A stretch of DNA of 64,000 bases, taken from NCBI GenBank assembly GCA_039793395.1, contig JBAMLV010000022.1, positions 2,897 through 66,896 on the forward strand, in the 5' to 3' direction. Positions 34,293 through 50,548 of the stretch are shown here, piece by piece. A program made the translations under genes and the position numbers. Within the stretch, counting starts at the first letter, position 1. Each line of letters starts with the position of its first letter. The notes beneath the pieces were generated by a model that saw only the letters and a list, made by a program, of their open reading frames with translations, was not told the origin of the DNA and made no database searches. This DNA comes from a bacterium. Its GTDB lineage: Bacteria > Hydrothermota > Tepidihabitantia > Tepidihabitantales > Tepidihabitantaceae.

Positions 34293-34310
34293 TTGTGCAA
34301 CAATGCACAA
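34293..34310. promoter_or_regulatory. 18-bp perfect palindrome TTGTGCAACAATGCACAA (candidate operator upstream of the hdr cluster)
   Basis: Read directly from the sequence. An extra TGCACA half-site lies at 34286-34291. The shape TTGTGxA-N4-TxCACAA resembles Rex/CRP-FNR-type operators. Confidence 0.35.
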
Positions 34311-34381: not shown

Positions 34382-34409
34382 TTGACTTTGAATTTATCTG
34401 AGTTATCAT
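34382..34409 (+). promoter_or_regulatory. Putative promoter of the hdr cluster (TTGACT-N16-TATCAT)
   Basis: TTGACT at 34382-34387 and TATCAT at 34404-34409. The ATG at 34421 is 11 nt downstream, with no SD. Confidence 0.45.
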
Positions 34410-34420
34410 TTTTTCTTGCG

Positions 34421-34813
34421 ATGAATTCAGCGGCGAACTCCTCCCTGGTTTCCCGAATTGAGGAATTGAGCGGGCAGCGGGTGCTGGACTGTTATCAGTG
34501 CGGGTGCTGTACTGCTGGCTGTCCGATTGGCGAGTTGATGGACCCCGCGCCGAGTAAGGCAATCCGGCTGTTGCAGCTGGGACGGGCAGAAGAGTTGCTG
34601 GCAAGTGAAGGTATCTGGTTGTGTGCCAGTTGTCTGGTGTGCGGGACGAGGTGTCCGCGGAATGTTGATTATGCAAAGATTGCCGAGGCATGCCGGGCAA
34701 TTGTCCTGCGGGCAAAGCGGAGTGTGGTTGACCCGGACCGGGTCAGCCCTGAGCAGTTGCAGGATATACCCCAGCAGGCATTCATTGCCAGTTTCCGGAA
34801 GTTTTCGGTATGA
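34421..34813 (+). CDS. hdrC: Heterodisulfide reductase subunit C (HdrC-like, 2x[4Fe-4S])
   Basis: CYQCGCCTAGCP and CASCLVCGTRCP motifs; 130 aa from ATG 34421. The ORF-track start at 34241 precedes the predicted promoter. Confidence 0.85.
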   Translation: MNSAANSSLVSRIEELSGQRVLDCYQCGCCTAGCPIGELMDPAPSKAIRLLQLGRAEELLASEGIWLCASCLVCGTRCPRNVDYAKIAEACRAIVLRAKRSVVDPDRVSPEQLQDIPQQAFIASFRKFSV

Positions 34814-35673
34814 AGTATCCTTATTATCCTGGCTGTACGCTCTATTCCAAGGCGAGAAATCTTGACCAGTGTGCCCGGAAAGCCGCGCTCCGTGCCGGTT
34901 TTGAACTGGAGGAGATGCCATCCTGGAACTGTTGCGGTGCCATTTACAATACCAATACCGATGACCTGGCGGCGCAGGTTGGACCGGTGCGCAATCTGGC
35001 AAAGGCAAGTCAACTGGGCGAGCGGCTGGTGACGCTGTGTGCCGCCTGTTATAATGTGCTGAAGCGGGCAAGTGAGCACCTGCAGGCAACCGGTTTTGAA
35101 GCGGACCGGCAGCGACTTTTGGATTTTGTTGATGAGCCGTTGATCCGGGATGTGGAGGTGGTGCATTATCTACAGGTGTTGAAGGAGCTGGGCTGGGAAG
35201 GGCTGCGGGCAAAGGTGGCCAAGCCGCTGAACGGGTTGAAGATTGCCTCCTATTACGGCTGTCTGATGGTGCGGCCAAAGGAGGTGTTGAAGTTTGATGA
35301 CCCGGAAAATCCAATGGTGATGGATGAGCTGGTGGCGGCGCTGGGCGGAACACCGGTGCGGTTTGATTTCAAGAGCGAGTGCTGCGGCGGCTATCTCGTG
35401 GTCAATCATCAGGCGGTGGCTGATGCCTGTTCGCTGCGGGTGGTGGAGAATGCCCGGACCTGGGGCGCAGAACTGGTGGTGACCACCTGTCCACTGTGTC
35501 AGTATAATCTGGAGATGGCTCAGCGGCGCCGGTCTTCCGGGAATCAGTTAGTGCCGGTGCTTTATTTTACTCAGGTGCTGGGACTGGCACTGGGTCTGGC
35601 AGAAGCGGAGTTGGGGTTTGATGATAACCGGCTGGACCCGCGCCCGTTTCTTTTGACCAGGGGGTTGCTGTAA
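34810..35673 (+). CDS. hdrB: Heterodisulfide reductase subunit B (two CCG domains)
   Basis: Two CCG-domain signatures: SWNCCGA...LCAACYN and SECCGGY...TCPLCQYN. ATGA overlap with hdrC. Confidence 0.9.
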   Translation: MKYPYYPGCTLYSKARNLDQCARKAALRAGFELEEMPSWNCCGAIYNTNTDDLAAQVGPVRNLAKASQLGERLVTLCAACYNVLKRASEHLQATGFEADRQRLLDFVDEPLIRDVEVVHYLQVLKELGWEGLRAKVAKPLNGLKIASYYGCLMVRPKEVLKFDDPENPMVMDELVAALGGTPVRFDFKSECCGGYLVVNHQAVADACSLRVVENARTWGAELVVTTCPLCQYNLEMAQRRRSSGNQLVPVLYFTQVLGLALGLAEAELGFDDNRLDPRPFLLTRGLL

Positions 35674-35675
35674 AG

Positions 35676-37619
35676 ATGGCACGGTCGCGGGTCGGGGTTT
35701 TTGTCTGTCACTGCGGGATTAACATTGCGGGTGTGGTCCGGGTGCCGGAGCTGGTGGAGCGGGTAAAGACAATTCCCGGGGTGGTGAGTGCGCTGGATTA
35801 TGTTTACTGCTGTTCCGACCCGGGGCAGCAACTGATTAAGCAGACGATTAAGGACAAGGGGCTGGACGGAGTGGTGGTGGCGTGCTGTTCGCCGAATCTG
35901 CACGAGGCGACCTTCCGGAAGGCAGCGGCTGAAGCGGGGTTGAATCCGTATCGGTGTGAGATTGCCAACATCCGGGAGCAGTGTTCCTGGGTAACTGCGG
36001 ACCGGGATGCGGCAACCGAGAAGGCGGAAGGGATTGTCCGGACGATGGTGGCAAAGGTGCGGGAGGATGTACCGCTTTTCCGGTTGCAAGTGCCGCTGGT
36101 CAAGCGGGCGCTGGTGGTGGGTGCGGGTATTGCCGGGATTCAGGCGGCACTGGACATTGCCAATGCGGGTTATGAGGTGGTTTTGGTGGAGAAGGAGCCG
36201 TCAATCGGTGGGCATATGGCGCAGCTTTCCGAGACCTTTCCGACGCTTGACTGTTCCCAGTGCATTCTGACTCCAAAGACGGTTGAAGCGGGCAATCACC
36301 CGCGGATTAAACTCCTGACCTATTCCGAGGTGCTGGAGGTTTCGGGGTTCATCGGCAATTTCCGGGTGAAAATCCGGCAGAAGCCACGTTATGTTGATCT
36401 TGATGCCTGCACCGGCTGCGGTATCTGTCTGGAAAAGTGTCCGGTCAGGGTGGAGTCCGGGTTTGACCGCAATCTGACCCGGCGCCGGGCAATCTACCGG
36501 CTGTTTCCCCAGGCGGTACCGAATAAGGTGGTGATTGATGCCGAGCACTGCCGGCAGTTGCAGGGCAAGAGGTGCGGGGTTTGTGAGCGGGTTTGTCCGG
36601 CGCAGGCGATTCGGTATGAAGATACCGGGCGGATTATTGAGGAGGAGGTGGGGGCGATTGTGCTGGCGACCGGCTATGAGCTGTTTGACATTTCCCGGGT
36701 TGGTTCCTATGGGGCAGGGGTGGTGCCGGATGTGATTGACAGTCTGGCGTTTGAAAGGATTCTTTCGGCATCGGGTCCGTTTGCGGGTGAGGTGCGCCGG
36801 CCTTCGGACGGCAGAGTTCCGAAGCGGGTGGTTTTTGTGCAGTGCGCCGGCTCCCGGGACGCAAATCAGGGGGTGCCCTACTGCTCAAAAATCTGCTGTA
36901 TGTATACCGCGAAGCATGCCCTGCTTTACAAGCACCGGGTGCATGATGGTGAGGCAATTGTCTGTTATATTGATGTCCGGACTCCGGGCAAGGGTTTTGA
37001 GGAGTTCTATCGCCGGGCAACCGATGAAGGGGTTAAATACCTGCGGGGTAAGGTTGCCAAGATTTTCCGGCGCGCCGACCGGGTGGTGGTCTGGGCAGCG
37101 GATACGCTGGCGGGTAAAAAGATTGAGATTGAGGCTGATATGGTGGTCCTGGCAAGTGCGGTAATTCCCAATCCGAAGGGGGTGGAGCTGGCACGGCGGT
37201 TGAAGATTGCTCTTGATGCCCATGGCTTTCAGTCGGAGGCACATCCGAAGCTGCGGCCGGTTGAGACTTTGACCGCGGGCTTCTTTCTTGCCGGCTGTGG
37301 TCAGGGACCGAAGGACATTCCGGAGACGGTGGCACAGGCTTCAGGTGCGGCGGCAAAGGTGCTGGCGATGTTCGGTACGAGTGAGCTGTATCATGAACCG
37401 GTGATTGCCGAGGTGGATGAGGAGGTTTGCGTTGGCTGTGGTAATTGCGAGCGGAGCTGCGCCTATGAGGCGGTGAAGGTTGATGTCCGGCGCGGTAAGG
37501 CGGTGGTGCAGGCGGTGATGTGTGAAGGGTGTGGTGCATGTTCGGTTGCCTGTCCGGCCGGGGCAATTAACCTCAAGAATTTTACCAAGCGGGCGCTGAT
37601 TGAGATGGTGGATGTGTGA
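35676..37619 (+). CDS. hdrA: Heterodisulfide reductase subunit A (canonical-length HdrA flavoprotein)
   Basis: N-terminal VFVCHCGINIAG domain, FAD fold VVGAGIAGIQAALDIA, TFPTLDCSQCILTPK, an inserted ferredoxin (CTGCGICLEKCP) and a C-terminal 2x[4Fe-4S] domain (CVGCGNCERSC, CEGCGACSVACP). Confidence 0.9.
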   Translation: MARSRVGVFVCHCGINIAGVVRVPELVERVKTIPGVVSALDYVYCCSDPGQQLIKQTIKDKGLDGVVVACCSPNLHEATFRKAAAEAGLNPYRCEIANIREQCSWVTADRDAATEKAEGIVRTMVAKVREDVPLFRLQVPLVKRALVVGAGIAGIQAALDIANAGYEVVLVEKEPSIGGHMAQLSETFPTLDCSQCILTPKTVEAGNHPRIKLLTYSEVLEVSGFIGNFRVKIRQKPRYVDLDACTGCGICLEKCPVRVESGFDRNLTRRRAIYRLFPQAVPNKVVIDAEHCRQLQGKRCGVCERVCPAQAIRYEDTGRIIEEEVGAIVLATGYELFDISRVGSYGAGVVPDVIDSLAFERILSASGPFAGEVRRPSDGRVPKRVVFVQCAGSRDANQGVPYCSKICCMYTAKHALLYKHRVHDGEAIVCYIDVRTPGKGFEEFYRRATDEGVKYLRGKVAKIFRRADRVVVWAADTLAGKKIEIEADMVVLASAVIPNPKGVELARRLKIALDAHGFQSEAHPKLRPVETLTAGFFLAGCGQGPKDIPETVAQASGAAAKVLAMFGTSELYHEPVIAEVDEEVCVGCGNCERSCAYEAVKVDVRRGKAVVQAVMCEGCGACSVACPAGAINLKNFTKRALIEMVDV

Positions 37620-37632
37620 GGGGAAGCGGGAG

Positions 37633-40600
37633 ATGGGCGATAATGGCAATCTGAATTCGGCGGTTCCGGTGACGGAAGCCAGGGTCGGGGCGGTGCTGGT
37701 GGTCGGTGCCGGCATTGCCGGGATACAGTCGGCACTGGAACTGGCAGAGTCCGGGTTCAAGGTTTATCTTATGGATTCGGCACCCGCGATTGGCGGGGTG
37801 ATGGCGATGCTGGACAAGACCTTTCCGACGAATGACTGCTCAATGTGTATTTTGAGCCCGAAACTGGTCGGCACGGGCCGGCATCCGAATATTGAACTGC
37901 TCAACGGCGCGGAGCTGCTCGGTCTGGAAGGGGAGCCGGGCAACTTCACCGCCCGGGTCCGGCAGCGGCCCAGGTATGTGTTGCTGGAGAAGTGCACCGG
38001 TTGTATGGACTGCACCAAGGTGTGTCCGGTCCGGGTGCCGGATAGTTACAATCAGGGGCTTGCTATGCGGGGTGCGGTTTACAAGCTTTTTGCCCAGGCA
38101 ATTCCGAATGCAGTGGCAATTGACAAGAATGAACGCCGGGCACCGTGCCGGCTTGCCTGTCCGGCAGAGGTGAATGCCCAGGGTTATATTGCCCTGACCC
38201 GCGCCGGTAAGTTCAAGGAGGCTTATCAACTGGTGCGCGAGCGCCTGCCGTTTGTGGGTGTGTGCGGCCGGGTGTGCCATCATCCCTGCGAGGAGAATTG
38301 CAACCGCCGGAAGTTTGATGCCGAGAGTCCGGTTGCCATCAGGACAATCAAGCGGTTTCTTGCCGATTATGTGGCAAAACAGGGCGGACTGCCGTATTCG
38401 GTGCCGGAAAGGCAGGGGGAGAGTGCGGCGCGGGTGGCAGTTATCGGTGCCGGACCAGCAGGCTTGACCTGTGCGCTGGATTTGCGGCTGAAGGGTTATG
38501 AGGTGACGGTTTTTGAGGCGGCAGAGCAGCCGGGCGGAATGATGCGCTGGGGTATCCCAGCTTACCGGCTGCCCCGGGCGGTGCTGGACCAGGAGATTAA
38601 GGATATTCTTGATACCGGTATTGAACTGAAGTTGAACTCGCCCATTAATGACCCGGCCGAACTCAAGCGTCTGCTGGCGCAGGGGTATCGGGCAGTTTTT
38701 ATTGCCATCGGTGCCAGCCGGAGCCGGACCTTGAACATTCCGGGGATGGAGTTGAAGGGGGTGCTGCACGGCATTGAGTTTCTCCGGGAGGTAAATCGCG
38801 GGGCAGTGCCGGCAATCGGCAGGCGGGTGGTGGTTATTGGCGGTGGTAATGTGGCGGTGGATGTAGCGATGTGTGCGCGGCGGTGCGGTGCCGAAGCGGT
38901 GACGATGGTCTGTCTGGAAAAACGGGATGAGATGCCTGCCCATCCGTGGGAGATTGAGGAGGCGCTCGCCGAGGGAATAAAAATAATGCCCGGCTGGGGT
39001 CCGGCCGCAATCCGGGGTGAGGATGGTGCGGTTGCCGGACTTGAGACCATAGAGTGCACGAGCGTTTTTGATGAGCAGCACCGGTTCAATCCCCAATTCA
39101 ATCCGGATAACCGGGGCTTTGTCCCGGCAGAGACGGTAATTCTGGCAATCGGTCAGCAGGTGGCTTTACCCTTTGCTTCGTTCCAGGTTGACCCGGTGAC
39201 CCTGGAGGTAAAGGGAATGCCCGGGGTGTTTGCCGGCGGTGATATGGTGTCCGGTCCCGCTTCGGTGATTGAGGCGGTTCAGGCTGGCCATGAAGCGGCA
39301 ATTTCCATTGACCGGTTCATCCGGAAAGAGGATTTGAGCGCCGGCAGGCAAAAGCCAAAACCGGAACCGGCACGGCTTGAGGATTCTGCTGGTTATCGCA
39401 TCGGTATCAAACCCCAGGCGCGGACAAAGGAGCCGGTGCTGAACCCGGAGCAACGGCAGAACTGGGATGAGCTGAATTTAGGTTTTGATGAAGAGCAGGC
39501 ACAGGCTGAAGCCCAGCGGTGTCTGGATTGCGGTATCTGCTCGGAATGTTTTCAGTGTGTGAGTGCGTGTGAAGCCCGGGCAATTGACCACCAGCAGCAG
39601 GAAAGGCAGCTGGAACTGAAGGTGGGGGCGGTTATTCTTGCTGGCGGGTTTAGCGAGCACAAGCCGGTTGCCGATGTCAGTCTCGGTTATGCTCAACACC
39701 CGAACATCGTTACCAGTCTGGAGTTTGAGCGGATTCTTTCGGCAACCGGTCCTTATGAAGGCCAGGTGCGCCGGCCGTCAGATTTAACTCCGCCGAAGAA
39801 GGTCGCCTGGGTGCAGTGTGTCGGTTCCCGGAATCAGGAGCATTATTACTGCTCATCGGTCTGCTGTATGTTTGCGGTCAAGGAGGCGGTCATCGCCAAG
39901 GAGCACTGCGGTGGGGAGCTGGATTGTCACATCTACTATCTGGATATGCGCTGTTTTGGCAAGGGTTTTGAACGGTATTATGAACGGGCAAAAAATGAGT
40001 ATGGGGTGGTGTTCCGGCGTTCGCGGGTGAGTGCAATCCGGGCAGTGCCGGAAACCGGCGACCTCTTGATTGCGTATGAGGATGAGCAGGGCGTGCTACA
40101 TGATGAGGTTTACAATCTGGTGGTGCTGTCCAGTGCCCTGGTGGCAAATCCGGAGATGGTGGCGCTGTGTGAGCGGCTGGGAGTCAAAGTTGACCCTCAG
40201 GGGTTTGTCCAGACCTCAGCTCTTTATCCGGTGGCGACCTCCCGGGCTGGAGTTTTTGCCTGTGGTGTGCTGACCGAGCCCAAGGATATTCCGGAAACGG
40301 TCACCGAAGCAACCGGCTGCGCCGGTGCGGTTGCCGGACTTTTGAGCACCGTCCGAAATACGCTGGTGAGCAGGAAGAGTTATCCGCGGGAGCGGGATGT
40401 TACGGAAGAAGAGCCGCGGGTCGGAGTTTTTGTGTGCAACTGCGGTATCAACATCGGCGGGGTGGTGCGCGTGCCCGAAGTGGTGGAGTATGCCCGAACC
40501 CTGCCCGGGGTGGTTTATGCCGAAGAAAATCTGTTCACCTGCTCGCAGGATACCCAGGAGAAAATCAAGCGGATTATTCAGGAGCAGCGGTTGAACCGGG

Positions 40601-42117
40601 TGGTGGTTGCCTCCTGCACTCCGCGGACCCATGAGCCGCTATTTCAGGAGACGCTGGCGGAAGCGGGTTTGAACCGGCACCTGTTTACGATGGCAAATAT
40701 CCGGGACCAGTGTTCCTGGGTTCATATGCATCTGCCCCAGGAGGCGACCGCGAAAGCCAAGGAGCTGGTGCGGATGGCGGTTGCCAATGCCCGGCACCTG
40801 AAACCGCTTACCGCTGCTCAATCGCCGGTGGTGCAGAAGGCGCTGGTGGTCGGGGGTGGCATTGCCGGAATGACCGCCGCACTGGCAATTGCGGAGCAGG
40901 GGTTTGAGGTGTTTTTGGTGGAAAGGGAAAAGGAACTGGGTGGTAATCTGCGCCGGGTGCGATATGATGAGGCGGGAAATCGGACCGCGGATATTGTTGC
41001 GCGGCTGGAAAACCGGCTGCGTTCCCATCCGAAAGTCAGGATTCTGACCGGTGCGGAAATCAGTGCGGTCAGCGGTTATGTGGGCAATTATCGGACCACG
41101 GTCCGGTTTACAGGCGCTGAGCGGTCACCGGAAGAGACTTTAGAGCACGGTGTTTTTGTGGTGGCGGTTGGGGCAAGGGAGTATGTGCCTAAAGAATATT
41201 TCTATGGTGAAGACAGCCGGGTTTTGACCCAGCTGGAGCTGGAAAATCTGATTGAAACCCAGCCCGATTTTCTTGCCCGGACTGCCGGGACCGCGGGTGC
41301 AAATAAACCGTCCAGCCCGACAGTGGTGATGATTCAGTGCGTCGGGTCAAGGAATGAGGAGCATCCCTGGTGCTCCCGGGTTTGTTGCACTGAGGCGGTT
41401 AAGAATGCACTCCGGCTGAAGAAGGAGTATCCGAATGTTCAGGTGTATATTTTTTACCGGGATATGCGCACCTACGGGTTCCGGGAAGGACTTTATCGCG
41501 AAGCCCGGCGTGCCGGGGTGCTATTTATTCATTATGAGCCCGGGGAATTGAAGGTTGAACGCCGGGACGGGAAAATTTTGGTTTCCGGTTATGACCCGGT
41601 GCTGGCAGGCCGGGTGGGGGTGGTAGCCGATTATCTGGTGCTTTCAACCGGCATCGTGCCCGCGGAGTCCAATCCGCAACTGGCGAAACTGCTCAAGGTG
41701 CCGTTGAATGAGGACGGTTTCTTTCTGGAAGCACATATGAAATTGAGGCCGGTGGATTTTAACACCGCCGGGATTTTTATGGCTGGCACCGCTCACAGCC
41801 CCCGTTTTATTTCCGAGACCATTGCGCAGGCACTGGCAGCCGCGGCACGCGCGGGTTCACTTATCAGTTCAACCCGGATTATGACTTCCGCGGTGGTGGC
41901 ACGGGTGAATACCCGCTGGTGTGCAGGTTGCGGTGTGTGTGAGCGGGTGTGTCAGTATGAGGCGGTTCGGCTCAACCCGGAAACCGGTAAATCAGAAGTT
42001 ACCGCGGTTTTGTGCCAGGGGTGCGGTGCCTGTGCTGCCGCCTGTCCCGCCGGTGCAATTGAGCTGGCGGGGTTTGAATCCCGGCAACTGCTTTCAATCG
42101 TGGAGGAGGCGTTGTAA
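37633..42117 (+). CDS. Giant HdrA-type fusion: HdrA core with a nested GltD/NfnB-like NAD(P)H module, followed by a second HdrA-like module (large-HdrA, HdrL-like architecture)
   Basis: Module 1 has VGAGIAGIQSALELA, TFPTNDCSMCILSPK and CTGCMDCTKVCP. The nested GltD-like block has CGRVCHHPCEENC, VAVIGAGPAGLTCALDL and VVVIGGGNVAVDVA. The HdrA core then resumes (LEFERILSATGPYEGQVRRPSD, CSSVCCMFAVKEAV). Module 2 has VFVCNCGINIGG and VVGGGIAGMTAALAIA, with C-terminal CAGCGVCERVC and CQGCGACAAACP. ATG 37633 is preferred. Confidence 0.8.
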   Translation: MGDNGNLNSAVPVTEARVGAVLVVGAGIAGIQSALELAESGFKVYLMDSAPAIGGVMAMLDKTFPTNDCSMCILSPKLVGTGRHPNIELLNGAELLGLEGEPGNFTARVRQRPRYVLLEKCTGCMDCTKVCPVRVPDSYNQGLAMRGAVYKLFAQAIPNAVAIDKNERRAPCRLACPAEVNAQGYIALTRAGKFKEAYQLVRERLPFVGVCGRVCHHPCEENCNRRKFDAESPVAIRTIKRFLADYVAKQGGLPYSVPERQGESAARVAVIGAGPAGLTCALDLRLKGYEVTVFEAAEQPGGMMRWGIPAYRLPRAVLDQEIKDILDTGIELKLNSPINDPAELKRLLAQGYRAVFIAIGASRSRTLNIPGMELKGVLHGIEFLREVNRGAVPAIGRRVVVIGGGNVAVDVAMCARRCGAEAVTMVCLEKRDEMPAHPWEIEEALAEGIKIMPGWGPAAIRGEDGAVAGLETIECTSVFDEQHRFNPQFNPDNRGFVPAETVILAIGQQVALPFASFQVDPVTLEVKGMPGVFAGGDMVSGPASVIEAVQAGHEAAISIDRFIRKEDLSAGRQKPKPEPARLEDSAGYRIGIKPQARTKEPVLNPEQRQNWDELNLGFDEEQAQAEAQRCLDCGICSECFQCVSACEARAIDHQQQERQLELKVGAVILAGGFSEHKPVADVSLGYAQHPNIVTSLEFERILSATGPYEGQVRRPSDLTPPKKVAWVQCVGSRNQEHYYCSSVCCMFAVKEAVIAKEHCGGELDCHIYYLDMRCFGKGFERYYERAKNEYGVVFRRSRVSAIRAVPETGDLLIAYEDEQGVLHDEVYNLVVLSSALVANPEMVALCERLGVKVDPQGFVQTSALYPVATSRAGVFACGVLTEPKDIPETVTEATGCAGAVAGLLSTVRNTLVSRKSYPRERDVTEEEPRVGVFVCNCGINIGGVVRVPEVVEYARTLPGVVYAEENLFTCSQDTQEKIKRIIQEQRLNRVVVASCTPRTHEPLFQETLAEAGLNRHLFTMANIRDQCSWVHMHLPQEATAKAKELVRMAVANARHLKPLTAAQSPVVQKALVVGGGIAGMTAALAIAEQGFEVFLVEREKELGGNLRRVRYDEAGNRTADIVARLENRLRSHPKVRILTGAEISAVSGYVGNYRTTVRFTGAERSPEETLEHGVFVVAVGAREYVPKEYFYGEDSRVLTQLELENLIETQPDFLARTAGTAGANKPSSPTVVMIQCVGSRNEEHPWCSRVCCTEAVKNALRLKKEYPNVQVYIFYRDMRTYGFREGLYREARRAGVLFIHYEPGELKVERRDGKILVSGYDPVLAGRVGVVADYLVLSTGIVPAESNPQLAKLLKVPLNEDGFFLEAHMKLRPVDFNTAGIFMAGTAHSPRFISETIAQALAAAARAGSLISSTRIMTSAVVARVNTRWCAGCGVCERVCQYEAVRLNPETGKSEVTAVLCQGCGACAAACPAGAIELAGFESRQLLSIVEEAL
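38128..39516 (+). other. GltD/NfnB-like (glutamate synthase small-subunit-type) domain inserted within the inserted-ferredoxin domain of HdrA module 1
   Basis: Boundaries come from aligning the 1494-aa protein by eye with its 1007-aa paralogue. Similarity stops after ...AIPNAVAIDK and resumes at RCLDCGICSECFQCVSACEARAIDH. Confidence 0.65.
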
Positions 42118-42536
42118 TGAGTTTTGAACCGAAAATAGTCGGATTTCTCTGCAACTGGTGTACCTATGCGGGTGCAGACCTGGCAGGGACATCAAGAATT
42201 CAATATCCACCAAATATGAGGCCCATCCGGGTGATGTGCTCTGGAGCGGTCGATTCGGTTTATATCCTGCGGGCACTGCTTGAGGGCGCGGATGGAGTGT
42301 TCATCGGTGGCTGTCATCCCGGTGACTGCCATTATGTATCCGGCAATTACAAAACCCGGCGCCGGATGGTGCTGTTCAACTCCATTATGCGGTCGCTGGG
42401 CCTGGATGAAGGCCGGGTGCTAGTGCGCTGGATTTCAGCGGCTGAAGGCAAGAAGTTTGCCGATACGGTAACCGAGCTGACCGAGCGGCTCAGACAGCTG
42501 GGACCGAGTCCATTCCGCCATCTCTGGGAGGTGTGA
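42117..42536 (+). CDS. mvhD: MvhD/FlpD-type [2Fe-2S] electron-transfer subunit
   Basis: FLCNWCTYAGADLAG, CSGAVD and GCHPGDCHY motifs; 139 aa. TAATG overlap with the upstream gene. Confidence 0.85.
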   Translation: MSFEPKIVGFLCNWCTYAGADLAGTSRIQYPPNMRPIRVMCSGAVDSVYILRALLEGADGVFIGGCHPGDCHYVSGNYKTRRRMVLFNSIMRSLGLDEGRVLVRWISAAEGKKFADTVTELTERLRQLGPSPFRHLWEV

Positions 42537-42537
42537 T

Positions 42538-43677
42538 TTGGCAGCGAGCGTATTCATTAAAGTTCTAACAGATAATCCGCAGCAGACATTGCGCGGGATT
42601 TATGCCCGGTGGCTGAAAACCGGCGAACTATCGGCACTGCTGGTGCCGGCAGTTTCGGCGACCGGGGTTGCGGCACCGGTGCTTTTTTCCGACCCGGAAA
42701 AGGTGGCAATGGTCAGTCCACTGCTGCCGGTAATGGCGGTCAACAGTGCATCAATTGTTGCGGAGATTGCGGCCGAGCGGGCAACCGAAACCCGGGTGGG
42801 GGTGGTGTTGCGTCCCTGTGAAATGCGGGCGGTGGTGGAGTTGATTAAACTGCAGCAGATCGTCCGGGAAAATCTGGTGCTGATCGGGATTGACTGTCCG
42901 GGGACATACCTGCCGGCGGTGCTCGGTCCGGAGCTGGTTGAGGACCGTGGTAAACTGGATGAATGGGTGATTGAGTTCGTTAGCGGTCAGGACCGCTATT
43001 TTGAGGATGAACGGTTGCGCAGTGCCTGCCAGATGTGTGAATTTCCAACATCGCTGGTTGCCGACCTGAAAATCGGGTTTTTAGGGTTGAATGTAAGGGA
43101 AAGGCTGCTTTTGAGTCCGGTTTCTGAAGCCGGGAGCCGGCTGGTTGCGGGACTGGAAACTGAACCGGCAGCGGAGAATATTCCGGAGCGGAGTGGCTAT
43201 CTGGACCGGTTTGTGCAGTCCCGGAAAAGCCGGGCGGAACAGCGGATTGCCGATTTTGACCGGGTCGGTCTGGGACCGGAGAATCTGGTCCGTTATTTTG
43301 CCCGCTGTCTTAACTGTCATAACTGTATGAAGGTTTGTCCGGTCTGTTATTGCCGGGAGTGTTTCTTTGAATCGGATGTGTTCCAGCGAGAGCAGGATGA
43401 ATATGTCCGGCGGTCAAAAAGGAAAGGGCTTAACCGGATGCCGGCCGGAACGCTTTTGTTTCATCTGACGCGAATGAATCATATGATGACCTCCTGCGTC
43501 CAGTGCGGGATTTGTGAGGATTCCTGTCCAGCAGGAATCGGTTTGAGTGTGCTGTTCAAGAAGGTTGCCCGCAATGCCCAGGCGGCATTTGATTATCTTT
43601 CCGGTCGGTCGCTTGATGAGCCGTTGCCACTCACTACCTTCCGGGAGGATGAGTTCCGGGAAATTGGCGAGGAGTAG
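42538..43677 (+). CDS. Fe-S protein with a 2x[4Fe-4S]-like C-terminal region; the N-terminal domain is possibly FrhB/FdhB-like
   Basis: C-terminal CLNCHNCMKVCPVCYCRECFFE and CVQCGICEDSCPAG. The N-terminal VLRPCEMRAVVELIKLQ ... LIGIDCPGTY pattern is reminiscent of FrhB/FdhB-family proteins, but that assignment is not secure. TTG start with GGAGG 6 nt upstream. Confidence 0.45.
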   Translation: MAASVFIKVLTDNPQQTLRGIYARWLKTGELSALLVPAVSATGVAAPVLFSDPEKVAMVSPLLPVMAVNSASIVAEIAAERATETRVGVVLRPCEMRAVVELIKLQQIVRENLVLIGIDCPGTYLPAVLGPELVEDRGKLDEWVIEFVSGQDRYFEDERLRSACQMCEFPTSLVADLKIGFLGLNVRERLLLSPVSEAGSRLVAGLETEPAAENIPERSGYLDRFVQSRKSRAEQRIADFDRVGLGPENLVRYFARCLNCHNCMKVCPVCYCRECFFESDVFQREQDEYVRRSKRKGLNRMPAGTLLFHLTRMNHMMTSCVQCGICEDSCPAGIGLSVLFKKVARNAQAAFDYLSGRSLDEPLPLTTFREDEFREIGEE

Positions 43678-43683
43678 CGCCCA

Positions 43684-44343
43684 ATGGCAGAACTGCTGTT
43701 AAATGAACTGGACACGAGTTTTAAGTACCGGATTGCGGAACGGATGGGCGATGACAGTTTTCTCAACTGCTTTGCCTGCGGTTCCTGCACCGCCTCCTGT
43801 CCGGTGCGCCGGCTGGAGGGAAAATATAATCCGCGCCGGCTGATCCGGATGGCAATCTTGGGGATGAAGGATGAGGTGTATAAATCGGAATTTCTCTGGC
43901 TCTGTTCCTACCATTCTACCTGTCTTTACCGCTGTCCGCAGAAGGTGAACATCGGCGCGGTCAGCGATGCGGTGAGCCGGCTCAAGCAGCAGGCGGGCAA
44001 AAGTGGCTGGCCCGATGGTATCAGCACCGAGTTCCGCCGGGCGGTGGTGCGTGAGGTTCCCGGAGTAAGCGCCTGTTTTGTCTGTGGTTCCTGCACCGCG
44101 GTTTGTCCGGAAAGTTTTCTTGACCCGGCAAATGACCCGCGGAAATTTATCCGTAAGGTCAATCTCGGGCTGGCAAGGGCGGCGCTCAGCGATGAGTTCA
44201 AGGATATCTGTGCCACTCATTTCCGGTGTGAAAGCCGGTGCCCCCAGGGGGTTAAAATCAGCCGGGTGATGCAGGTCCTGCGCGAGCTGGCACTGGAAGA
44301 TGGTTATTCATTGCCGGAATCAATCCGGTTTCTCCGGGAATAG
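43684..44343 (+). CDS. Tandem (duplicated) HdrC-like Fe-S protein with a Cys-to-His variant second motif
   Basis: Two HdrC-like halves: CFACGSCTASCP + CSYHSTCLYRCP, and CFVCGSCTAVCP + CATHFRCESRCP. No adjacent CCG-domain partner. Confidence 0.7.
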   Translation: MAELLLNELDTSFKYRIAERMGDDSFLNCFACGSCTASCPVRRLEGKYNPRRLIRMAILGMKDEVYKSEFLWLCSYHSTCLYRCPQKVNIGAVSDAVSRLKQQAGKSGWPDGISTEFRRAVVREVPGVSACFVCGSCTAVCPESFLDPANDPRKFIRKVNLGLARAALSDEFKDICATHFRCESRCPQGVKISRVMQVLRELALEDGYSLPESIRFLRE

Positions 44344-44345
44344 TT

Positions 44346-47300
44346 ATGGTGAATGAACCGCAGTTAAACGGTGTCCTCGTTATCGGGGGCGGAATCGGCG
44401 GGGTGCAGGCAGCACTGGATCTGGCTGAGGCGGGCAGGAAGGTTTATCTGGTAGAACGGGCACCCGCGATTGGCGGCTATATGGCGATGCTGGACAAAAC
44501 CTTTCCTACCAATGACTGCTCAATGTGTATCCTCAGTCCGAAACTGGTCAGCTGTGCCCGTCATCCGAACATTGAACTGCTGACGCTCAGCGAAGTGGTT
44601 GCCACCGCCGGCGAACCGGGCAACTTTTTGGTGAAAGTCCGGCGCTATGCCCGTTCGGTTGACCTTTCCCGGTGCACCGGCTGTGGTGACTGCCTGGAAA
44701 AGTGTCCGGTGAAAGTGCCCAGCGAGTTTGAGGGTGGACTGGCGCAGCGCCGGGCAATCTATCGTCTGTATGCCCAGGCTGTGCCCAATGCCCCCGTAAT
44801 TGACCGTCAGCACTGCCTTAAATTTACCAAGGACCGTTGTGGCAACTGTGCCCGGGTGTGCAAAGCCGGGGCGATTGATTACCGGCAGGATGATGAGGAG
44901 ATTGAAATCCGGGTCGGAGCAATCATTATTGCCGCCGGGAGCAAGATTTTTAACCCGGCGGTGCGGCCGGAGTTTGGCTATAAAAGGCTCGCCAATGTGG
45001 TGACCGCGCTGGAGTTTGAACGCATCCTCTCGGCATCCGGACCATACGGGGGCAGGGTCAAGCGGCCAGGAGACGGTGCGGAGCCGAAGAAGATCGCCTG
45101 GGTTCAGTGCTTCGGTTCCCGTGACGAGACAATTGGAAGCAGTTACTGCTCTTCGGTTTGCTGTATGTATGCCGCCAAGGAGGCGGTTATCGCCCGGGAG
45201 CACAATCCCGATATTGAGCCGACCGTTTTTTATATGGATATGCGTGCCTATGGCAAGGAGTTTGACCGTTATATTGAAAGGGCAGAAAGGCAATATGGGG
45301 TCCGGTTTGTGCGGGCACGGGTTGCTGAAATTCTGGAAGACCGGTTGACCGGCAGGCTGATTGTCCGTTATGCCGGTGATAATGGTCAACAGGCAGAAGG
45401 GTTTGACCTGGTGGTGCTTTCCTGTGGTCTGGTGCCAGAACCGGCGACCGGTTTGACCGTTGAACACAACCGGTTTGGTTTTCCACTGACCGACCTGATT
45501 GAACCGGTGAACGCTTCCCGGCGCGGGATATTTATCGCCGGCAGTTGTGCCCAACCGGTTGCCATTCCGGAAACCGTGACCGCGGCATCAGCAGCTGCGG
45601 TCAAGGCGCTGCCACTTACCGTTCCCGCGTCCCGGCGGTTCCAGCCAGAAGCAAGCCAAAAGGAAATCAATGTCGCCGGCATTGCCCCGCGAATCGGAGT
45701 TTTTGTCTGTAACTGCGGCATCAATATCGGCGGGGTGGTGCGTGTGCCCGAGGTGGTGGAGTATGCCCGGACCCTGCCCGGGGTGGTCTTTGTTGAGGAA
45801 AACCTTTATTCCTGTTCAGCTGATACTCTTGAGAAAATCAAGTCCCGGATAAAGGAACAAAACCTCAACCGGGTGGTGGTGGCTTCCTGTTCGCCGCGGA
45901 CCCATGAGCCGCTGTTTCAGGCAACCCTGAGCGAGGCGGGCTTGAATCCCCATCTGTTGGCGATGGCAAACATCCGGGACCAGTGTTCCTGGGTTCATCC
46001 GGACCGGGACCAGGCAACCGTCAAGGCAAAGGACCTGGTGAAAATGGCAGTGGCACGGGTTCGGCGTCAGCAGCCGCTGGCACCGGTCCGACTGCCGGTA
46101 ACCAAAGCCGGGCTGGTCGTGGGCGGCGGGATTGCCGGATTGGCAGCGGCGCGGGCGCTGGCAGATTCCGGGGTGGATGTTTTGCTGATCGAACGGGAAG
46201 CGGTGCTGGGTGGTGTGGCACGCCAGATTTACCGGACAATTGAAGGCGAAGATGTCCAGCAACGGCTGAACTCGTTGATTGAACAGGTTACCAATCATCC
46301 CCGAATCAGAGTTTATACCGGTGCCGAAATCAGAAGGGTTGACGGATTTGTCGGCTCGTTTGAGACCACGATTGCGGTCGCCGGCCGCGAAGAGCGATTT
46401 CGTCACGGGGTGGTGATTGTGGCGGTCGGAGCACAGTATCGCCAGCCAACAGAATATCAGTTTGGCAGTGACCCGCGGGTGCGGACCCAGCAGGAACTGG
46501 AAGAGATAATTGCCCGGCGGCCGGATGAGCTGCACAATCTCCACTCGGTGGTTATGATTCAATGTGTCGGCTCGCGTGAAGGGGAGCGGAACTACTGTTC
46601 GCGAATCTGTTGTGCCGAGGCGATTAAAAACGCCCTCGCCATTAAAAATCTGAACCCGGACTGTGAGGTATTCATTCTGTATCGGGATATCCGGACCTAT
46701 GGTTTCCGGGAGGAGTATTACCGTCAGGCAAGAGAACTGGGGGTGATATTTATCCGTTATGAAGTGGAGCGCAAACCGCAGGTGCAGGTGGCTGACAACG
46801 GTTTAACTGTGCAGGTTCACGAACCGGTGCTCGGACTTCCCCTGACACTCAAGCCGGACCTGCTGGTGCTTTCCACCGGCGTTGAGCCGCAGCCGGATGC
46901 CGAGCGGCTGGCACAAATGCTGAAGGTGCCACGGCAGCAGGATGGGTTCTTCCTTGAGGCGCACGCCAAGCTGCGGCCGGTTGATTTTGCCACCGAAGGT
47001 GTTTTTCTTGCCGGGCTGTGTCACTATCCTGAATTTATTGACGAGACCATCGCCTCGGCTCAAGCCGCGGCCGGTCGGGCTGCCACGGTGCTGGCACGGG
47101 ATTTTATTGAAGCCGAGCCCTATCAGGCGGTGGTTTCGCCTGAGCGCTGTTCCGCCTGCGGAATGTGTGCTGGATTATGTGCCTATCGGGCAATTGAAGT
47201 CCGGGTTGTTGAAGAGCGGACCGGGAAACGGGCAGCGGTGGTTAATCAGGCGATGTGTAAAGGGTGCGGCGCCTGTGCGGCAAACTGCCGGTCCGAAGCC

Positions 47301-47369
47301 ATTGACATCCGCGGGTTTGCCGCCGAAAATATCTGTCGGGAAATTGCCACGCTGTTCAGTGAATCTTAA
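44346..47369 (+). CDS. HdrA-HdrA tandem fusion flavoprotein (paralogue of the 1494-aa gene without the GltD insertion)
   Basis: Module 1 has VIGGGIGGVQAALDLA, TFPTNDCSMCILSPK, CTGCGDCLEKCP and CSSVCCMYAAKEAV. Module 2 has VFVCNCGINIGG, VVGGGIAGLAAARALA and CSRICCAEAIKNAL, with C-terminal CSACGMCAGLC and CKGCGACAANC. Confidence 0.8.
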   Translation: MVNEPQLNGVLVIGGGIGGVQAALDLAEAGRKVYLVERAPAIGGYMAMLDKTFPTNDCSMCILSPKLVSCARHPNIELLTLSEVVATAGEPGNFLVKVRRYARSVDLSRCTGCGDCLEKCPVKVPSEFEGGLAQRRAIYRLYAQAVPNAPVIDRQHCLKFTKDRCGNCARVCKAGAIDYRQDDEEIEIRVGAIIIAAGSKIFNPAVRPEFGYKRLANVVTALEFERILSASGPYGGRVKRPGDGAEPKKIAWVQCFGSRDETIGSSYCSSVCCMYAAKEAVIAREHNPDIEPTVFYMDMRAYGKEFDRYIERAERQYGVRFVRARVAEILEDRLTGRLIVRYAGDNGQQAEGFDLVVLSCGLVPEPATGLTVEHNRFGFPLTDLIEPVNASRRGIFIAGSCAQPVAIPETVTAASAAAVKALPLTVPASRRFQPEASQKEINVAGIAPRIGVFVCNCGINIGGVVRVPEVVEYARTLPGVVFVEENLYSCSADTLEKIKSRIKEQNLNRVVVASCSPRTHEPLFQATLSEAGLNPHLLAMANIRDQCSWVHPDRDQATVKAKDLVKMAVARVRRQQPLAPVRLPVTKAGLVVGGGIAGLAAARALADSGVDVLLIEREAVLGGVARQIYRTIEGEDVQQRLNSLIEQVTNHPRIRVYTGAEIRRVDGFVGSFETTIAVAGREERFRHGVVIVAVGAQYRQPTEYQFGSDPRVRTQQELEEIIARRPDELHNLHSVVMIQCVGSREGERNYCSRICCAEAIKNALAIKNLNPDCEVFILYRDIRTYGFREEYYRQARELGVIFIRYEVERKPQVQVADNGLTVQVHEPVLGLPLTLKPDLLVLSTGVEPQPDAERLAQMLKVPRQQDGFFLEAHAKLRPVDFATEGVFLAGLCHYPEFIDETIASAQAAAGRAATVLARDFIEAEPYQAVVSPERCSACGMCAGLCAYRAIEVRVVEERTGKRAAVVNQAMCKGCGACAANCRSEAIDIRGFAAENICREIATLFSES

Positions 47370-49006: not shown

Positions 49007-49505
49007 TGCCGGTCTCCTTTTTAGTTTTTTGTTTAATCCCGGTTATCAATTCATAGATTATAATTAAAATTACTCCGATAACAACGAAGGCATCGGCAAG
49101 ATTGAAGGTAAACCACCGGAAATTTAGTCTTTTGATTCCAACATCTATAAAATCAATAACATAACCAAGTCGGAGGCGGTCAATCAGATTGCCGAGCGCA
49201 CCACCGAGGATTATTCCATAAGCACACCCGAGATAGGTGTTCAGGGTTTTAAATCCCAGTGCCAGCACAAGGAGAATGCCCATCAACTGGAGGGCGAAAT
49301 GAAGCCAGCCGGCGCCGAATGATATTCCGAAGACACCATAAGGGTTAGTAGTGTATGAAATTTTCAGAAAGTCGCCAATCAGGCGAATGGAAAGTGGAGC
49401 GCCCGGCTGGTTGAAGAGGCCGTAAACAATGGTTTTGGTCAACTGGTCAAAAAATAGCGCCAGGATAGCAGTCCAGACAAAAGAACGGCGCAGTGCAGCG
49501 GTCAT
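48960..49505 (-). CDS. lspA: Lipoprotein signal peptidase (signal peptidase II)
   Basis: GGALGNLIDRL and FNLADAFVVIG motifs, with four predicted TM segments. The 3' tail overlaps the nifS start. Confidence 0.9.
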   Translation of the reverse strand: MTAALRRSFVWTAILALFFDQLTKTIVYGLFNQPGAPLSIRLIGDFLKISYTTNPYGVFGISFGAGWLHFALQLMGILLVLALGFKTLNTYLGCAYGIILGGALGNLIDRLRLGYVIDFIDVGIKRLNFRWFTFNLADAFVVIGVILIIIYELITGIKQKTKKETGNENACISGQQLHNPD

Positions 49506-50455
49506 CAGGTTTGTTTTTCAGTCGCCGCTGCCATTTGGTCAATCCGGTCCGGGGTGTAGACTCTAATATGGTAGTGCTGGGCAAATTGGCTGGCTTCTTC
49601 AGTTAATCTGGGGGAGACGACAAGAATTATGTCCTGAGCACCGACATCGTATGCCTTGGCATAAAGTTTTATCACCGCTTCCGAATCAACATGCTGGGCA
49701 CCGGTGGCAAACCCGACAATGACCCGATGTTCGAGCGGTCCGGTATTTTTGATTGCCAGGATGTCAATCAGATGGACGGCGCCGGAGCGTCCCTTGACAT
49801 TAACCGATTCCTGAACTTCATAACCTTCACGGGTCAGCAGTTCCCGAATCCGGGCGCGCGGTATCCGCTCCTGCCGCAGACGGGTGACCTGGTCGGGATT
49901 CAGGGAGTATTTATAGAGTATCAGCTCCCGGATTTCATCCTTTTCGTAAGTGCGGTCACAGGAACGGCAGTGCCAGCGTTCAATCGGGGTGCGGGTAATT
50001 TCCTTACAGTCCGGGCAGCGATAGCGGTTCCCGAGGTCGTCATAGTCGCTTCCCAGTAACAGCAGTTCATTCCGGCACTTCGGGCAAACACGCCGGTCAT
50101 TCTGGATAAAATTTTCCACCGGTGCCGTATAGTTACAGGTGCGATGCCGGAACAGACGGGTGCGCCCAATTTCCAGGGAATTACATTTCGGGCAGTAAAG
50201 AGTAAGACCCAGGTCAGTGGAATTGCAGGCGGGACAGAAAAATACTCGCTCAGCAAACTGACGGTTCAAATATCCAAGATGGTACAGGTCTTCAAGTAAC
50301 TGAACCGCATATTCAGCGTCAACACCAAGTTGTGATTCAACCGCCTGGTAACTTACACCCTTCACCGTATGTGGTGCGAATACCGGTTCAAGACAATTGA
50401 GTTCCTGGTCAACCAGCAGTTCAAATAGTTTCAGCAACTTTGCGTCATTCAACAT
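49505..50455 (-). CDS. Zinc-ribbon-rich protein of unknown function (possibly a TackOD1-like Zn-ribbon module plus a C-terminal alpha/beta domain)
   Basis: CPACN...CPKC, CPKCRN...CPDC and CRSC motifs. The helical N-terminal region resembles a wHTH. The C-terminal VKGRSGAVHLIDILA...EHRVIVGF segment is vaguely nuclease-fold-like. ATG 50455 has GGAGG 5 nt upstream. Confidence 0.5.
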   Translation of the reverse strand: MLNDAKLLKLFELLVDQELNCLEPVFAPHTVKGVSYQAVESQLGVDAEYAVQLLEDLYHLGYLNRQFAERVFFCPACNSTDLGLTLYCPKCNSLEIGRTRLFRHRTCNYTAPVENFIQNDRRVCPKCRNELLLLGSDYDDLGNRYRCPDCKEITRTPIERWHCRSCDRTYEKDEIRELILYKYSLNPDQVTRLRQERIPRARIRELLTREGYEVQESVNVKGRSGAVHLIDILAIKNTGPLEHRVIVGFATGAQHVDSEAVIKLYAKAYDVGAQDIILVVSPRLTEEASQFAQHYHIRVYTPDRIDQMAAATEKQT

Positions 50456-50477
50456 AGCTTCCTCCAGCAGCGGATTC

Positions 50478-50505
50478 ATTATAATGCAAATCAGAGCGGA
50501 GTCAA
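50478..50505 (-). promoter_or_regulatory. Putative promoter (TTGACT-N16-TATAAT) of the Zn-ribbon/lspA/nifS operon
   Basis: Minus-strand read: TTGACT (50505-50500), 16 nt, TATAAT (50483-50478), followed by a ~22-nt leader containing GGAGG. Confidence 0.55.
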
Positions 50506-50548
50506 TCAAAATTTGTTAACCAAAATTCCGGGGAAAATGGCATTAAGA

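Follow-up and report, generated by a model that had tools for sequence, protein, structure and literature searches.

Eight-gene Hdr-type cluster and its HdrABC core

The 64-kb window analyzed here (64,000 nt of contig JBAMLV010000022.1, from a bacterium of candidate division WOR-3) harbors an Hdr-type gene cluster composed of eight co-directional open reading frames (ORFs) on the + strand, extending from position 34421 to 47369. The cluster opens with hdrC (34421–34813, 130 aa), hdrB (34810–35673, 287 aa) and hdrA (35676–37619, 647 aa), continues with hdrL (37633–42117), which encodes a 1494-aa fusion, and the connector gene mvhD (42117–42536, 139 aa), and ends with an fdhB/elpB-like gene (42538–43677, 379 aa), a gene for a tandem HdrC-like protein (43684–44343, 219 aa) and hdrAA (44346–47369), whose product is a 1007-aa HdrA–HdrA pseudo-dimer. 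In order, the junctions consist of a 4-nt overlap, a 2-nt gap, a 13-nt gap, a 1-nt overlap, a 1-nt gap, a 6-nt gap and a 2-nt gap, so that the ORF coordinates bear out the same-strand coupling by gaps of at most 13 nt and overlaps of 1–4 nt described in the initial annotation. If the NCBI start of hdrL is used (37612, giving 1501 aa), the hdrA/hdrL junction becomes an 8-nt overlap. The count of nine genes in that annotation does not hold, since seven genes rather than eight follow hdrC and its own list names eight. Upstream, a sigma-70-like promoter match on the + strand (TTGACT-16-TATCAT, 34382–34409), which is a consensus match only, agrees with 10 of 12 consensus positions and ends 12 nt before the hdrC ATG. 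No further promoter-like site lies between this match and the hdrC start, and no convincing terminator appears until past the archease gene downstream of the cluster. The 1494-aa HdrL is 100% identical to protein P0001 from the candidate division WOR-3 metagenome-assembled genome (MAG) GCA_049972635.1, contig JBMFKG010000001.1 (559 kb).

Every gene assignment is backed by both Pfam and NCBIfam, the profile scans for which the initial annotation had called. HdrC carries two CxxCxxCxxxC [4Fe-4S] motifs and matches Fer4_17/Fer4_8; it is called at 129–131 aa by NCBI and in all relatives, and a longer version (a 190-aa ORF from TTG 34241) was discarded because its extension lacks homology. HdrB is the sole protein of the cluster with CCG domains (PF02754, two stretches with two CCG motifs), in agreement with the single CCG subunit noted previously. 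It aligns over its full length to methanogen HdrB (9sfi_C, 3e-36; 5odc_B, 3.5e-31) and contains all ten conserved cysteines of both non-cubane cluster motifs. The 647-aa HdrA is canonical, aligning over residues 2–642 with the crystallized 5odc_A (E 1.7e-204), and is the only HdrA-type protein or module in the cluster to combine all four domains: the N-terminal cluster domain, the thioredoxin-reductase FAD domain with Cys194/197, the inserted ferredoxin domain plus a C-terminal ferredoxin domain. All of its motifs align to 5ODC HdrA, including DCSQC, CSKICC and the Lys409 equivalent. The NCBIfam equivalog cut-offs are 1100 bits for HdrA, 345 for HdrB, 160 for HdrC, 500 for the SdhE type and 300 for QmoC; the 647-aa HdrA scores 785 bits, and HdrC scores 60.5 bits with TIGR03290.

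Compared with MvhAGD–HdrABC, the four-domain HdrA with its FAD and six cluster sites is matched by the 647-aa HdrA only, and the two-CCG HdrB and two-[4Fe-4S] HdrC are matched as well, with a short HdrC in the window; MvhA and MvhG are absent from the 64 kb. Moreover, the precomputed Pfam assignments of the ~55 window genes include no hydrogenase, FdhA, MetFV, Flx, Qmo, DsrC or LbpA/lipoate carrier, as had been stated for the immediate surroundings, and no molybdopterin-oxidoreductase-like, NfnA-like or dsr gene. Two further affiliations were considered and set aside. An sHdr system (HdrC1B1A-Hyp-C2B2 with LbpA), marked by two HdrB, a short HdrA of about 350 aa and a lipoate-binding protein, does not fit one CCG protein, long HdrA forms and a window with no GcvH/LbpA-like gene. 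For Qmo, the membrane subunit QmoC is absent, and the HdrC-like proteins align no further than its soluble N-terminal region (QmoC model positions 6–94 of 360, 61–75 bits).

Complementary domains in the two fusions and the NfnB-like insert

The HdrA models match the 647-aa HdrA once and each large fusion over two separate parts, with sums over several stretches of 950 and 964 bits in the two fusions. When the halves of both are aligned domain by domain to 5ODC HdrA, the N-module of HdrL has neither an N-terminal domain nor a C-terminal ferredoxin domain while retaining FPTNDCSMC (Cys194/Cys197) and the inserted ferredoxin domain, whereas the C-module has an N-terminal domain and a C-terminal ferredoxin domain but neither the Cys197 motif nor an inserted ferredoxin domain. 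The modules of HdrAA form the same complementary pair without the NfnB-like insert, and HdrAA is 52–71% identical to its orthologues in the archaeal MAG LFW-68_2 (locus L079) and in two WOR-3 relatives (loci L084 and L085). Every HdrA-type module retains a FAD Rossmann motif, a CSxxCC cluster motif and an equivalent of Lys409.

According to Chadwick et al. (PMC9012536), complementary domain loss denotes an obligate heterodimer or, if the two parts are fused, a self-contained pseudo-dimer. In methanogen Hdr, the C-terminal ferredoxin domain and MvhD take up the electrons, which leave by two exits, one from the thioredoxin-reductase cluster to HdrCB and the other from the N-terminal-domain/Cys197 cluster by way of the inserted ferredoxin domain and on to ferredoxin (PMC9012536, PMC12350162). 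By analogy, each fusion probably holds one complete bifurcation circuit rather than two, and the domain complementarity would leave, in place of five FAD modules, a symmetric HdrA and a pair of pseudo-dimers with a single circuit each. The earlier count of five HdrA-type FAD modules stands, but the modules are not equivalent, and the imbalance that had been drawn against a single HdrB was overstated.

The architecture of HdrAA is that of HdrA in the Moorella thermoacetica MetFV–HdrCBA–MvhD complex (type IV methylenetetrahydrofolate reductase), the only purified bacterial HdrABC–MvhD complex of this kind; its metF and metV have no counterparts in the window. In Moorella, HdrA is a double, fused form that shows complementary domain loss (PMC9012536); it contains two FAD (PMC5861303) and is the NADH-oxidizing subunit of a complex that needs a second acceptor (PMC8760232, PMC5861303). 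Type II (fused) and type III (GltD/NfnB-inserted) HdrA are described from anaerobic methanotrophic (ANME) and other methane- or alkane-metabolizing archaea (PMC9012536, PMC12054007) and share with the window proteins the complementarity of Cys197 motif and N-terminal domain and, respectively, the NfnB-like insertion in the inserted ferredoxin domain. HdrL unites type II and type III features in one polypeptide, in an order reversed relative to ANME HdrA3/4, since the module without the N-terminal domain comes first; the bacterial form is far more widespread than the nine reported archaeal type III sequences. As a separate observation, 13 HdrL genes of the Desulfobacterota type (L012, L013, L014, L027, L033, L038, L040, L046, L058, L065, L070, L072 and L074) carry an in-frame TGA at the Cys197-equivalent position, reading FPTNDCAM[TGA]I against FPTNDCSMCI in the window. 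The codon probably specifies selenocysteine as a ligand of the inter-module cluster, a residue thus predicted for many Desulfobacterota HdrL proteins and missing from HdrL of the window, where all proteins of the cluster are all-Cys.

Within HdrL, Fer4_20 and Pyr_redox_2 (GltD/NfnB type) span residues 166–670. The corresponding NfnB/GltD-like NAD(P)H:FAD:2×[4Fe-4S] module of ~475 residues (residues 166 to ~640; 38128–39552, + strand) sits between the two cluster motifs of the inserted ferredoxin domain. Its closest solved relatives are NfnB-like domains, namely 9n5u_A (327 bits), 9bov_A, StnA 8oh5_C (281 bits) and Thermotoga maritima NfnB 4ylf_B (231 bits over residues 46–459), and NfnB and the NfnB-like portion of StnA are homologues of the insert, down to FAD, two [4Fe-4S] clusters and a dinucleotide site; no HdrA–NfnB fusion is present among solved structures. 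In contrast to NfnAB and Stn, the module is embedded in HdrA, is not accompanied by NfnA and has Leu-Glu in place of Arg-Arg. Specifically, the Tyr-Arg-Arg that follows the second Rossmann strand of NADPH enzymes aligns to Cys-Leu-Glu in HdrL, and Glu429 is invariant in 10 diverse HdrL sequences. By the usual Rossmann rule, a glutamate replacing the NADPH-binding arginine pair favors NADH over NADPH as the substrate of the insert, in line with NADH oxidation by Moorella HdrA (PMC8760232) and the NADH proposed for archaeal type III HdrA (PMC12054007); the NAD(P)H of the initial annotation is narrowed accordingly.

A different pyridine-nucleotide module occupies the same site in the archaeal MAG LFW-68_2, where the eight-module cluster is otherwise the same. 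There, three genes (6591–12712) stand in place of HdrL and encode an HdrA N-part with a NuoE-like [2Fe-2S] domain, a NuoF-like FMN/NADH protein, and a NuoG-N-like domain joined to the HdrA remainder and the C-module; the same NuoE/NuoF/NuoG-N-like trio also lies downstream in L084 (21187–24449). Two unrelated modules at one insertion site argue for NAD(P)H coupling as the function under selection, and this exchange of NfnB for NuoEF constitutes the strongest comparative argument that the insertion serves such coupling. A hydrogenase-free, NADH-dependent counterpart is Desulfovibrio FlxABCD–HdrABC, with an MvhD-type FlxD and a proposed reduction of ferredoxin and DsrC (as cited in PMC5947623). 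Membership in the Flx group was rejected because homologues of FlxA, FlxB and FlxC are absent; only the MvhD/FlxD-type gene is shared, and the NADH site of the window is an NfnB-type insert in HdrA.

The FdhB/ElpB-like subunit of 379 aa combines an FrhB-fold N-terminal part with cysteines for about four [4Fe-4S] clusters. Its family profile matches 9t1s_M (1e-48), 8rvu_E (8e-40) and 7bkb_E (7e-37) over residues 12–353; these entries are the FdhB/ElpB chains of methanogen Hdr supercomplexes, and the match takes in nearly the whole protein. Foldseek of its AlphaFold2 model (pLDDT 78, pTM 0.80) places 8rvu_E and 7bkb_E best (TM 0.67–0.68), followed by FrhB, Fsr and HCAR. By sequence and predicted fold, the protein is a true FdhB/ElpB homologue, and the beta-type arm of a formate dehydrogenase (FDH)/F420 module is present in the cluster, the catalytic FdhA being absent. 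The initial annotation had listed it as an Fe–S protein without recognizing the family and had excluded an FDH partner; this is correct for FdhA, but it passes over a homologue of a subunit that, with MvhD, forms a working input arm in methanogens. MvhD itself (FlpD, 180 bits, E 2e-53) is a [2Fe-2S] connector, present once in the cluster and 72–88% identical to the copies in L079, L084 and L085. In Methanothermobacter marburgensis, ElpB (FAD and four [4Fe-4S]) oxidizes F420H2 and passes electrons through the MvhD homologue ElpC to HdrA, ElpA being non-catalytic (PMC12350162). The mvhD and fdhB-like pair, being homologous to ElpB–ElpC, is therefore homologous to a proven Hdr input arm. As is proposed for the window, the FdhB/ElpB plus MvhD/ElpC connector of the methanogen Elp–Hdr and Fdh–Hdr complexes feeds HdrABC without a hydrogenase, and HdrA, HdrB and HdrC of the window match the same PDB entries as the FdhB/ElpB chains. 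The window differs in having no FdhA/ElpA homologue, in not keeping the flavin-region motif, and in the additional HdrL and HdrAA.

This homology also bears on an alternative in which the FdhB-like flavin site would be the main hydride partner, reacting with F420H2, another deazaflavin or flavin carrier, or formate through a distant FdhA, with NAD+ replacing ferredoxin as the acceptor at HdrL to give a disulfide-coupled, transhydrogenase-like enzyme. We regard it as improbable. It draws on the full-length FdhB/ElpB homology, on the precedent of ElpB driving Hdr by F420H2 oxidation without a catalytic FdhA (PMC12350162), on the prediction that a GltD insert blocks the access of ferredoxin to the inserted ferredoxin domain (PMC12054007), and on the "F420-dependent FDH" annotated in 33 subgroup-4 genomes of a WOR-3 survey (PMC12542636), which may be the fdhB-like gene. 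However, Pfam FrhB_FdhB_N (PF04422) is undetected in the 379-aa protein, its N-terminal glycine-rich motif is not kept, fdhA is absent from the 64 kb, and F420 biosynthesis is not known for WOR-3. Neither F420 nor CoM-S-S-CoB is expected in this bacterium. The product of 42538–43677 carries the JGI name "formate dehydrogenase (coenzyme F420) beta subunit"; the FDH entries of the 33 genomes may likewise be an fdhB-like gene lacking FdhA, and hence a mis-annotation, a reading that is ours.

The tandem HdrC-like protein (219 aa) consists of two HdrC-like halves, each with one CxxCxxCxxxC and one CxxHxxCxxxC motif. The latter fall at residues 74–85 and 176–187, and their histidine aligns to the second cysteine of methanogen HdrC. 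Of 85 loci, just five contain the His variant: the window's own record, L006 (Clostridia), the archaeal L079 and the WOR-3 relatives L084 and L085. In these five loci it always stands directly after MvhD and the FdhB-like gene. Similarly, only four representatives among 1.84 billion clusters at 50% identity match with E ≤ 1e-30, and the His is present in all four. By its distribution, the tandem His-type HdrC is a rare signature of this cluster type; that it may be an inter-module wire is our own speculation.

Gene neighborhoods in other genomes

A scan of species-representative genomes yielded 80 listed loci, without WOR-3 genomes, and WOR-3 relatives were fetched separately. ORFs of the loci were classified by domain probes, and neighbor families were obtained by unbiased clustering of flanking ORFs followed by Pfam; the resulting counts are lower bounds, as many contigs are short. 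The listed bacterial loci come from Desulfobacterota, Bacillota, Chloroflexota, Acidobacteriota, Planctomycetota, Nitrospinota, Armatimonadota, Spirochaetota, Gemmatimonadota, Thermotogota and Atribacterota, and the archaeal ones from Asgard archaea, Bathyarchaeia and Thermoplasmatota. The HdrL architecture (N-module, NfnB insert, N-module remainder and C-module) is present in at least 68 of the 82 loci listed, as is MvhD, and mvhD directly follows HdrL in at least 68. On the same scale, HdrB-type proteins are found in at least 33, FdhB/AsrA-like proteins in at least 23, HdrAA in at least 17, and GcvH-like and NuoF-like proteins in at least six each. MetF (at least 34) and MetV (at least 26) are the commonest same-strand neighbors of HdrL–MvhD among the loci listed (L004–L083). 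These distributions point to HdrL–MvhD as a portable NADH module, most often joined to MetVF, with the WOR-3 arrangement as a minority context. GlcD–CCG fusions lie near HdrL–MvhD in at least five of the loci listed, and the GcvH-like genes could encode LbpA-type thiol carriers.

The frequency of MetF and MetV next to HdrL–MvhD also touches on a very improbable alternative, in which the terminal acceptor would not be a disulfide: the HdrB-like CCG protein would act on another substrate (quinone/fumarate-type, as in SdhE/TfrB), or an acceptor module such as MetVF would be encoded elsewhere. The best NCBIfam match of HdrB is indeed the SdhE-type methylmenaquinol:fumarate reductase subunit, at 175 bits (cut-off 500) against 139 for HdrB (cut-off 345), both under their cut-offs, and the role of HdrBC in Moorella is still unassigned (PMC8760232). 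Nevertheless, the ten non-cubane-cluster cysteines and the end-to-end alignment with methanogen HdrB favor a disulfide, no membrane subunit is encoded, and the WOR-3 survey does not mention the Wood–Ljungdahl pathway.

Three further loci have all eight modules in order. L085 shares 60–88% identity per protein and the same archease and nifS synteny, L084 shares 57–83% identity with hdrB moved downstream, and the archaeal L079 shares 29–72%. An order kept in WOR-3 relatives at 57–88% identity and in one archaeal MAG is not due to chance. Partial arrangements are also seen: L039 (Bacillota) and L057 (Gemmatimonadota) have hdrCBA followed by hdrCB, hdrL, mvhD and an fdhB-like gene, and the Syntrophales loci L021–L023, L029 and L060 have HdrL–MvhD–FdhB-like–HdrC–HdrB, with FdhB-like proteins only 24–27% identical to that of the window. 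The comparison of neighborhoods suggested by the initial annotation thus recovers the 1494-aa and 1007-aa architectures together with hdrCBA–mvhD in full order, and the same modules in many other combinations. Beside the cluster in L085 (3528–6701) and L084 (4127–7385) lies an extra four-gene module comprising mvhD, Fer4, Fer4_22 (AsrA-like) and NAD_binding_1/DHODB_Fe-S_bind (AsrB/NfnA-like); it is not found in the window, and an NfnA/AsrB-like gene adjoins the cluster in these two loci only.

The initial annotation could not match the composition to any described system, a claim that goes too far on two counts. HdrL was named in Desulfobacterium autotrophicum, where mvhD always follows it and often "fdhB" too (PMC2702500), and the HdrABC/HdrL genes of Syntrophobacter fumaroxidans (Sfum_0819–0824) comprise hdrABC, an FdhB-like Fe–S protein, MvhD and HdrL (PMC5947623). 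In addition, fused HdrA with complementary loss and NfnB/GltD-inserted HdrA had already been described (PMC9012536, PMC12054007). The Syntrophobacter and Desulfobacterium class shares with the window the HdrA/GltD fusion followed by MvhD and the "FdhB-like" protein, adjoining hdrABC without a hydrogenase catalytic subunit; a link to NADH and a bifurcating or confurcating mode have been proposed for it (PMC5947623, PMC2702500). In S. fumaroxidans the proteins are abundant and co-detected in sulfate-grown proteomes, and confurcation with DsrC was proposed for the unpurified complex (PMC5947623). The window differs by its additional tandem His-type HdrC and 1007-aa HdrAA, by hdrCBA lying upstream, and by a WOR-3 host for which DsrC is not established as a substrate; dsr genes in WOR-3 are reported for subgroup 3 only (PMC12542636).

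The mobility of the modules raises the alternative of a neighborhood of two or three separate enzymes, namely an HdrABC paired with a distant MvhAGD hydrogenase for the classical H2-dependent bifurcation that has been assumed for WOR-3, HdrL–MvhD as an NADH module with another acceptor, and a FdhB-like/tandem HdrC/HdrAA unit. Such a division, which we consider unlikely, is in keeping with HdrL–MvhD standing alone or with MetVF in at least 34 of the 82 loci listed, with HdrAA having its own MvhD in several loci, and with L006, where MvhD–FdhB-like–tandem HdrC stands upstream of HdrL. The 647-aa HdrA furthermore has all domains needed for a symmetric Mvh-type complex, and 34 WOR-3 MAGs carry both mvhADG and hdrABC (PMC12542636). 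All eight genes, however, overlap or are spaced by no more than 13 nt, with only one promoter-like site upstream, and the whole order is kept between WOR-3 lineages (~60–70% identity) and an archaeon. Separate enzymes would also require the single mvhD to serve more than one HdrA unit, and there is no second HdrB for the fusions.

Proposed electron routes and the surrounding genes

We propose, with about even confidence, that the eight genes encode one cytoplasmic, hydrogenase-independent Hdr-type bifurcating (and reversibly confurcating) assembly of the HdrABC/HdrL class. In each pseudo-dimer, one complete circuit would lead from the C-terminal ferredoxin domain of the C-module, together with MvhD, to the FAD of the N-module. 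The high-potential electron would pass from this FAD to the thioredoxin-reductase cluster of the same module, then to HdrC or the tandem HdrC, to HdrB and to a disulfide, while the low-potential electron would travel by the cluster formed between the N-terminal domain of the C-module and Cys197 of the N-module into the inserted ferredoxin domain. In HdrA and HdrAA, the inserted ferredoxin domain would be free to reduce ferredoxin; in HdrL, it would be taken by the NfnB-like FAD module, which would exchange hydride with NADH. The FdhB-like protein and MvhD would add another arm for electron input or output, comparable to ElpBC or FdhB–MvhD. The net reaction would be 2 NADH + oxidized ferredoxin + R-S-S-R' → 2 NAD+ + reduced ferredoxin + 2 thiols, or its reverse.

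This single assembly is favored because of the gene content and tight coupling, the retention of HdrL–MvhD across many phyla, the eight-module order shared with L079, L084 and L085, the placement of the NfnB-like module inside the inserted ferredoxin domain as in type III HdrA (PMC12054007), its exchange for NuoEF-like parts at the same site, and the invariant Glu429. It is further favored because NADH is oxidized at HdrA in the Moorella complex (PMC8760232, PMC5861303), because the complementary loss in both fusions fits the pseudo-dimer pattern (PMC9012536), because the FdhB-like subunit resembles, in sequence and fold, part of the proven ElpB–ElpC input arm (PMC12350162), and because proteomes contain the HdrABC/HdrL proteins of Syntrophobacter together and in large amounts (PMC5947623). 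The soluble NAD(P)H/ferredoxin/disulfide assembly put forward in the initial annotation accordingly stays plausible and the most reasonable reading, though unproven, given an NfnB/GltD-like module within HdrA, a complete HdrABC with the ten HdrB cysteines, MvhD without MvhAG, and NADH oxidation by Moorella HdrA (PMC8760232).

Several observations weigh against a single NADH-linked assembly. No Hdr subunit reaches its NCBIfam equivalog cut-off, so these proteins are relatives of the methanogen CoB–CoM enzyme rather than members. The glycine-rich N-terminal GECGGAVT of archaeal FdhB/ElpB aligns to DNPQQTLR in the 379-aa protein, whose flavin site, judging from this alignment, may be lost. An NfnA-type partner for the HdrL insert is absent from the 64-kb window, as is any gene near the cluster for a disulfide substrate or carrier. 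Moreover, NADH would enter at what serves methanogen HdrA as the low-potential exit, a route with awkward thermodynamics if the NfnB-type FAD is not itself a bifurcating site. With three HdrA-type units sharing a single mvhD and a single hdrB, the stoichiometry of one complex is hard to assign, and the free recombination of modules in other genomes is equally compatible with separate enzymes. Finally, mvhADG is commonly present at other sites of WOR-3 MAGs (PMC12542636) and further NAD(P)H-type modules adjoin the cluster in relatives; a partner may be encoded elsewhere in the genome.

A more elaborate version of the wiring, which we hold to be quite unlikely, is that HdrL joins, head to head, two flavin systems out of the four in which bifurcation evolved independently, so that the HdrA FAD would feed its low-potential branch directly into that of the NfnB FAD (of the NuoF FMN in the archaeal locus). 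Together with HdrA and HdrAA, this would produce serial or coupled bifurcation among NADH, ferredoxin, the carrier of the FdhB site and the disulfide without a free ferredoxin intermediate, with the His-ligated tandem HdrC serving to wire the modules together.

The building blocks of the cluster are known from other anaerobes, and no complex of this kind has been purified. Non-methanogen Hdr complexes are among the most widespread predicted bifurcating enzymes, and HdrL–MvhD was encountered across dozens of phyla, bacterial as well as archaeal. The WOR-3 operon is compact and selenocysteine-free, bringing a predicted NADH site, an arm of the FdhB type, HdrBC, one symmetric HdrA and both asymmetric pseudo-dimers into one transcription-sized unit, and is a practical candidate for heterologous expression and cryo-electron microscopy. 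The NfnB-like/NuoEF-like swap and the rare His-ligated tandem HdrC further provide concrete wiring hypotheses.

In the precomputed Pfam assignments, the remainder of the 64-kb window consists of housekeeping genes. Upstream of the cluster lie a mur/fts division cluster, purF, dinB, a bamA-like gene, mnmG, recJ and an rlmI-like gene, and downstream an archease gene, a gene for a NifS-like aminotransferase, lspA, a Na/Pi transporter gene and ileS, so that the rlmI and archease/nifS flanks named previously are recovered. A 450-nt non-coding gap follows rlmI. At 34293–34310, upstream of hdrC, an 18-nt perfect palindrome TTGTGCAACAATGCACAA resembles a Rex/CRP operator and is flanked by two promoter-like matches; it is the sole exact TTGTG-N8-CACAA in the window and is not kept in L084, L085 or L079. 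It was not used as a Rex-type operator, since one such site lies within what chance would give and the orthologous clusters have no counterpart upstream. On the − strand, a gene at 49505–50509 contains TackOD1 and Mrr_cat (restriction-endonuclease-like) domains, and its synteny with lspA and nifS is kept in L085. Across the whole window (1–64000), GC skew is positive in all 2-kb bins, the cumulative skew climbs steadily and most genes are on the + strand, a pattern consistent with a segment of one leading-strand replichore.

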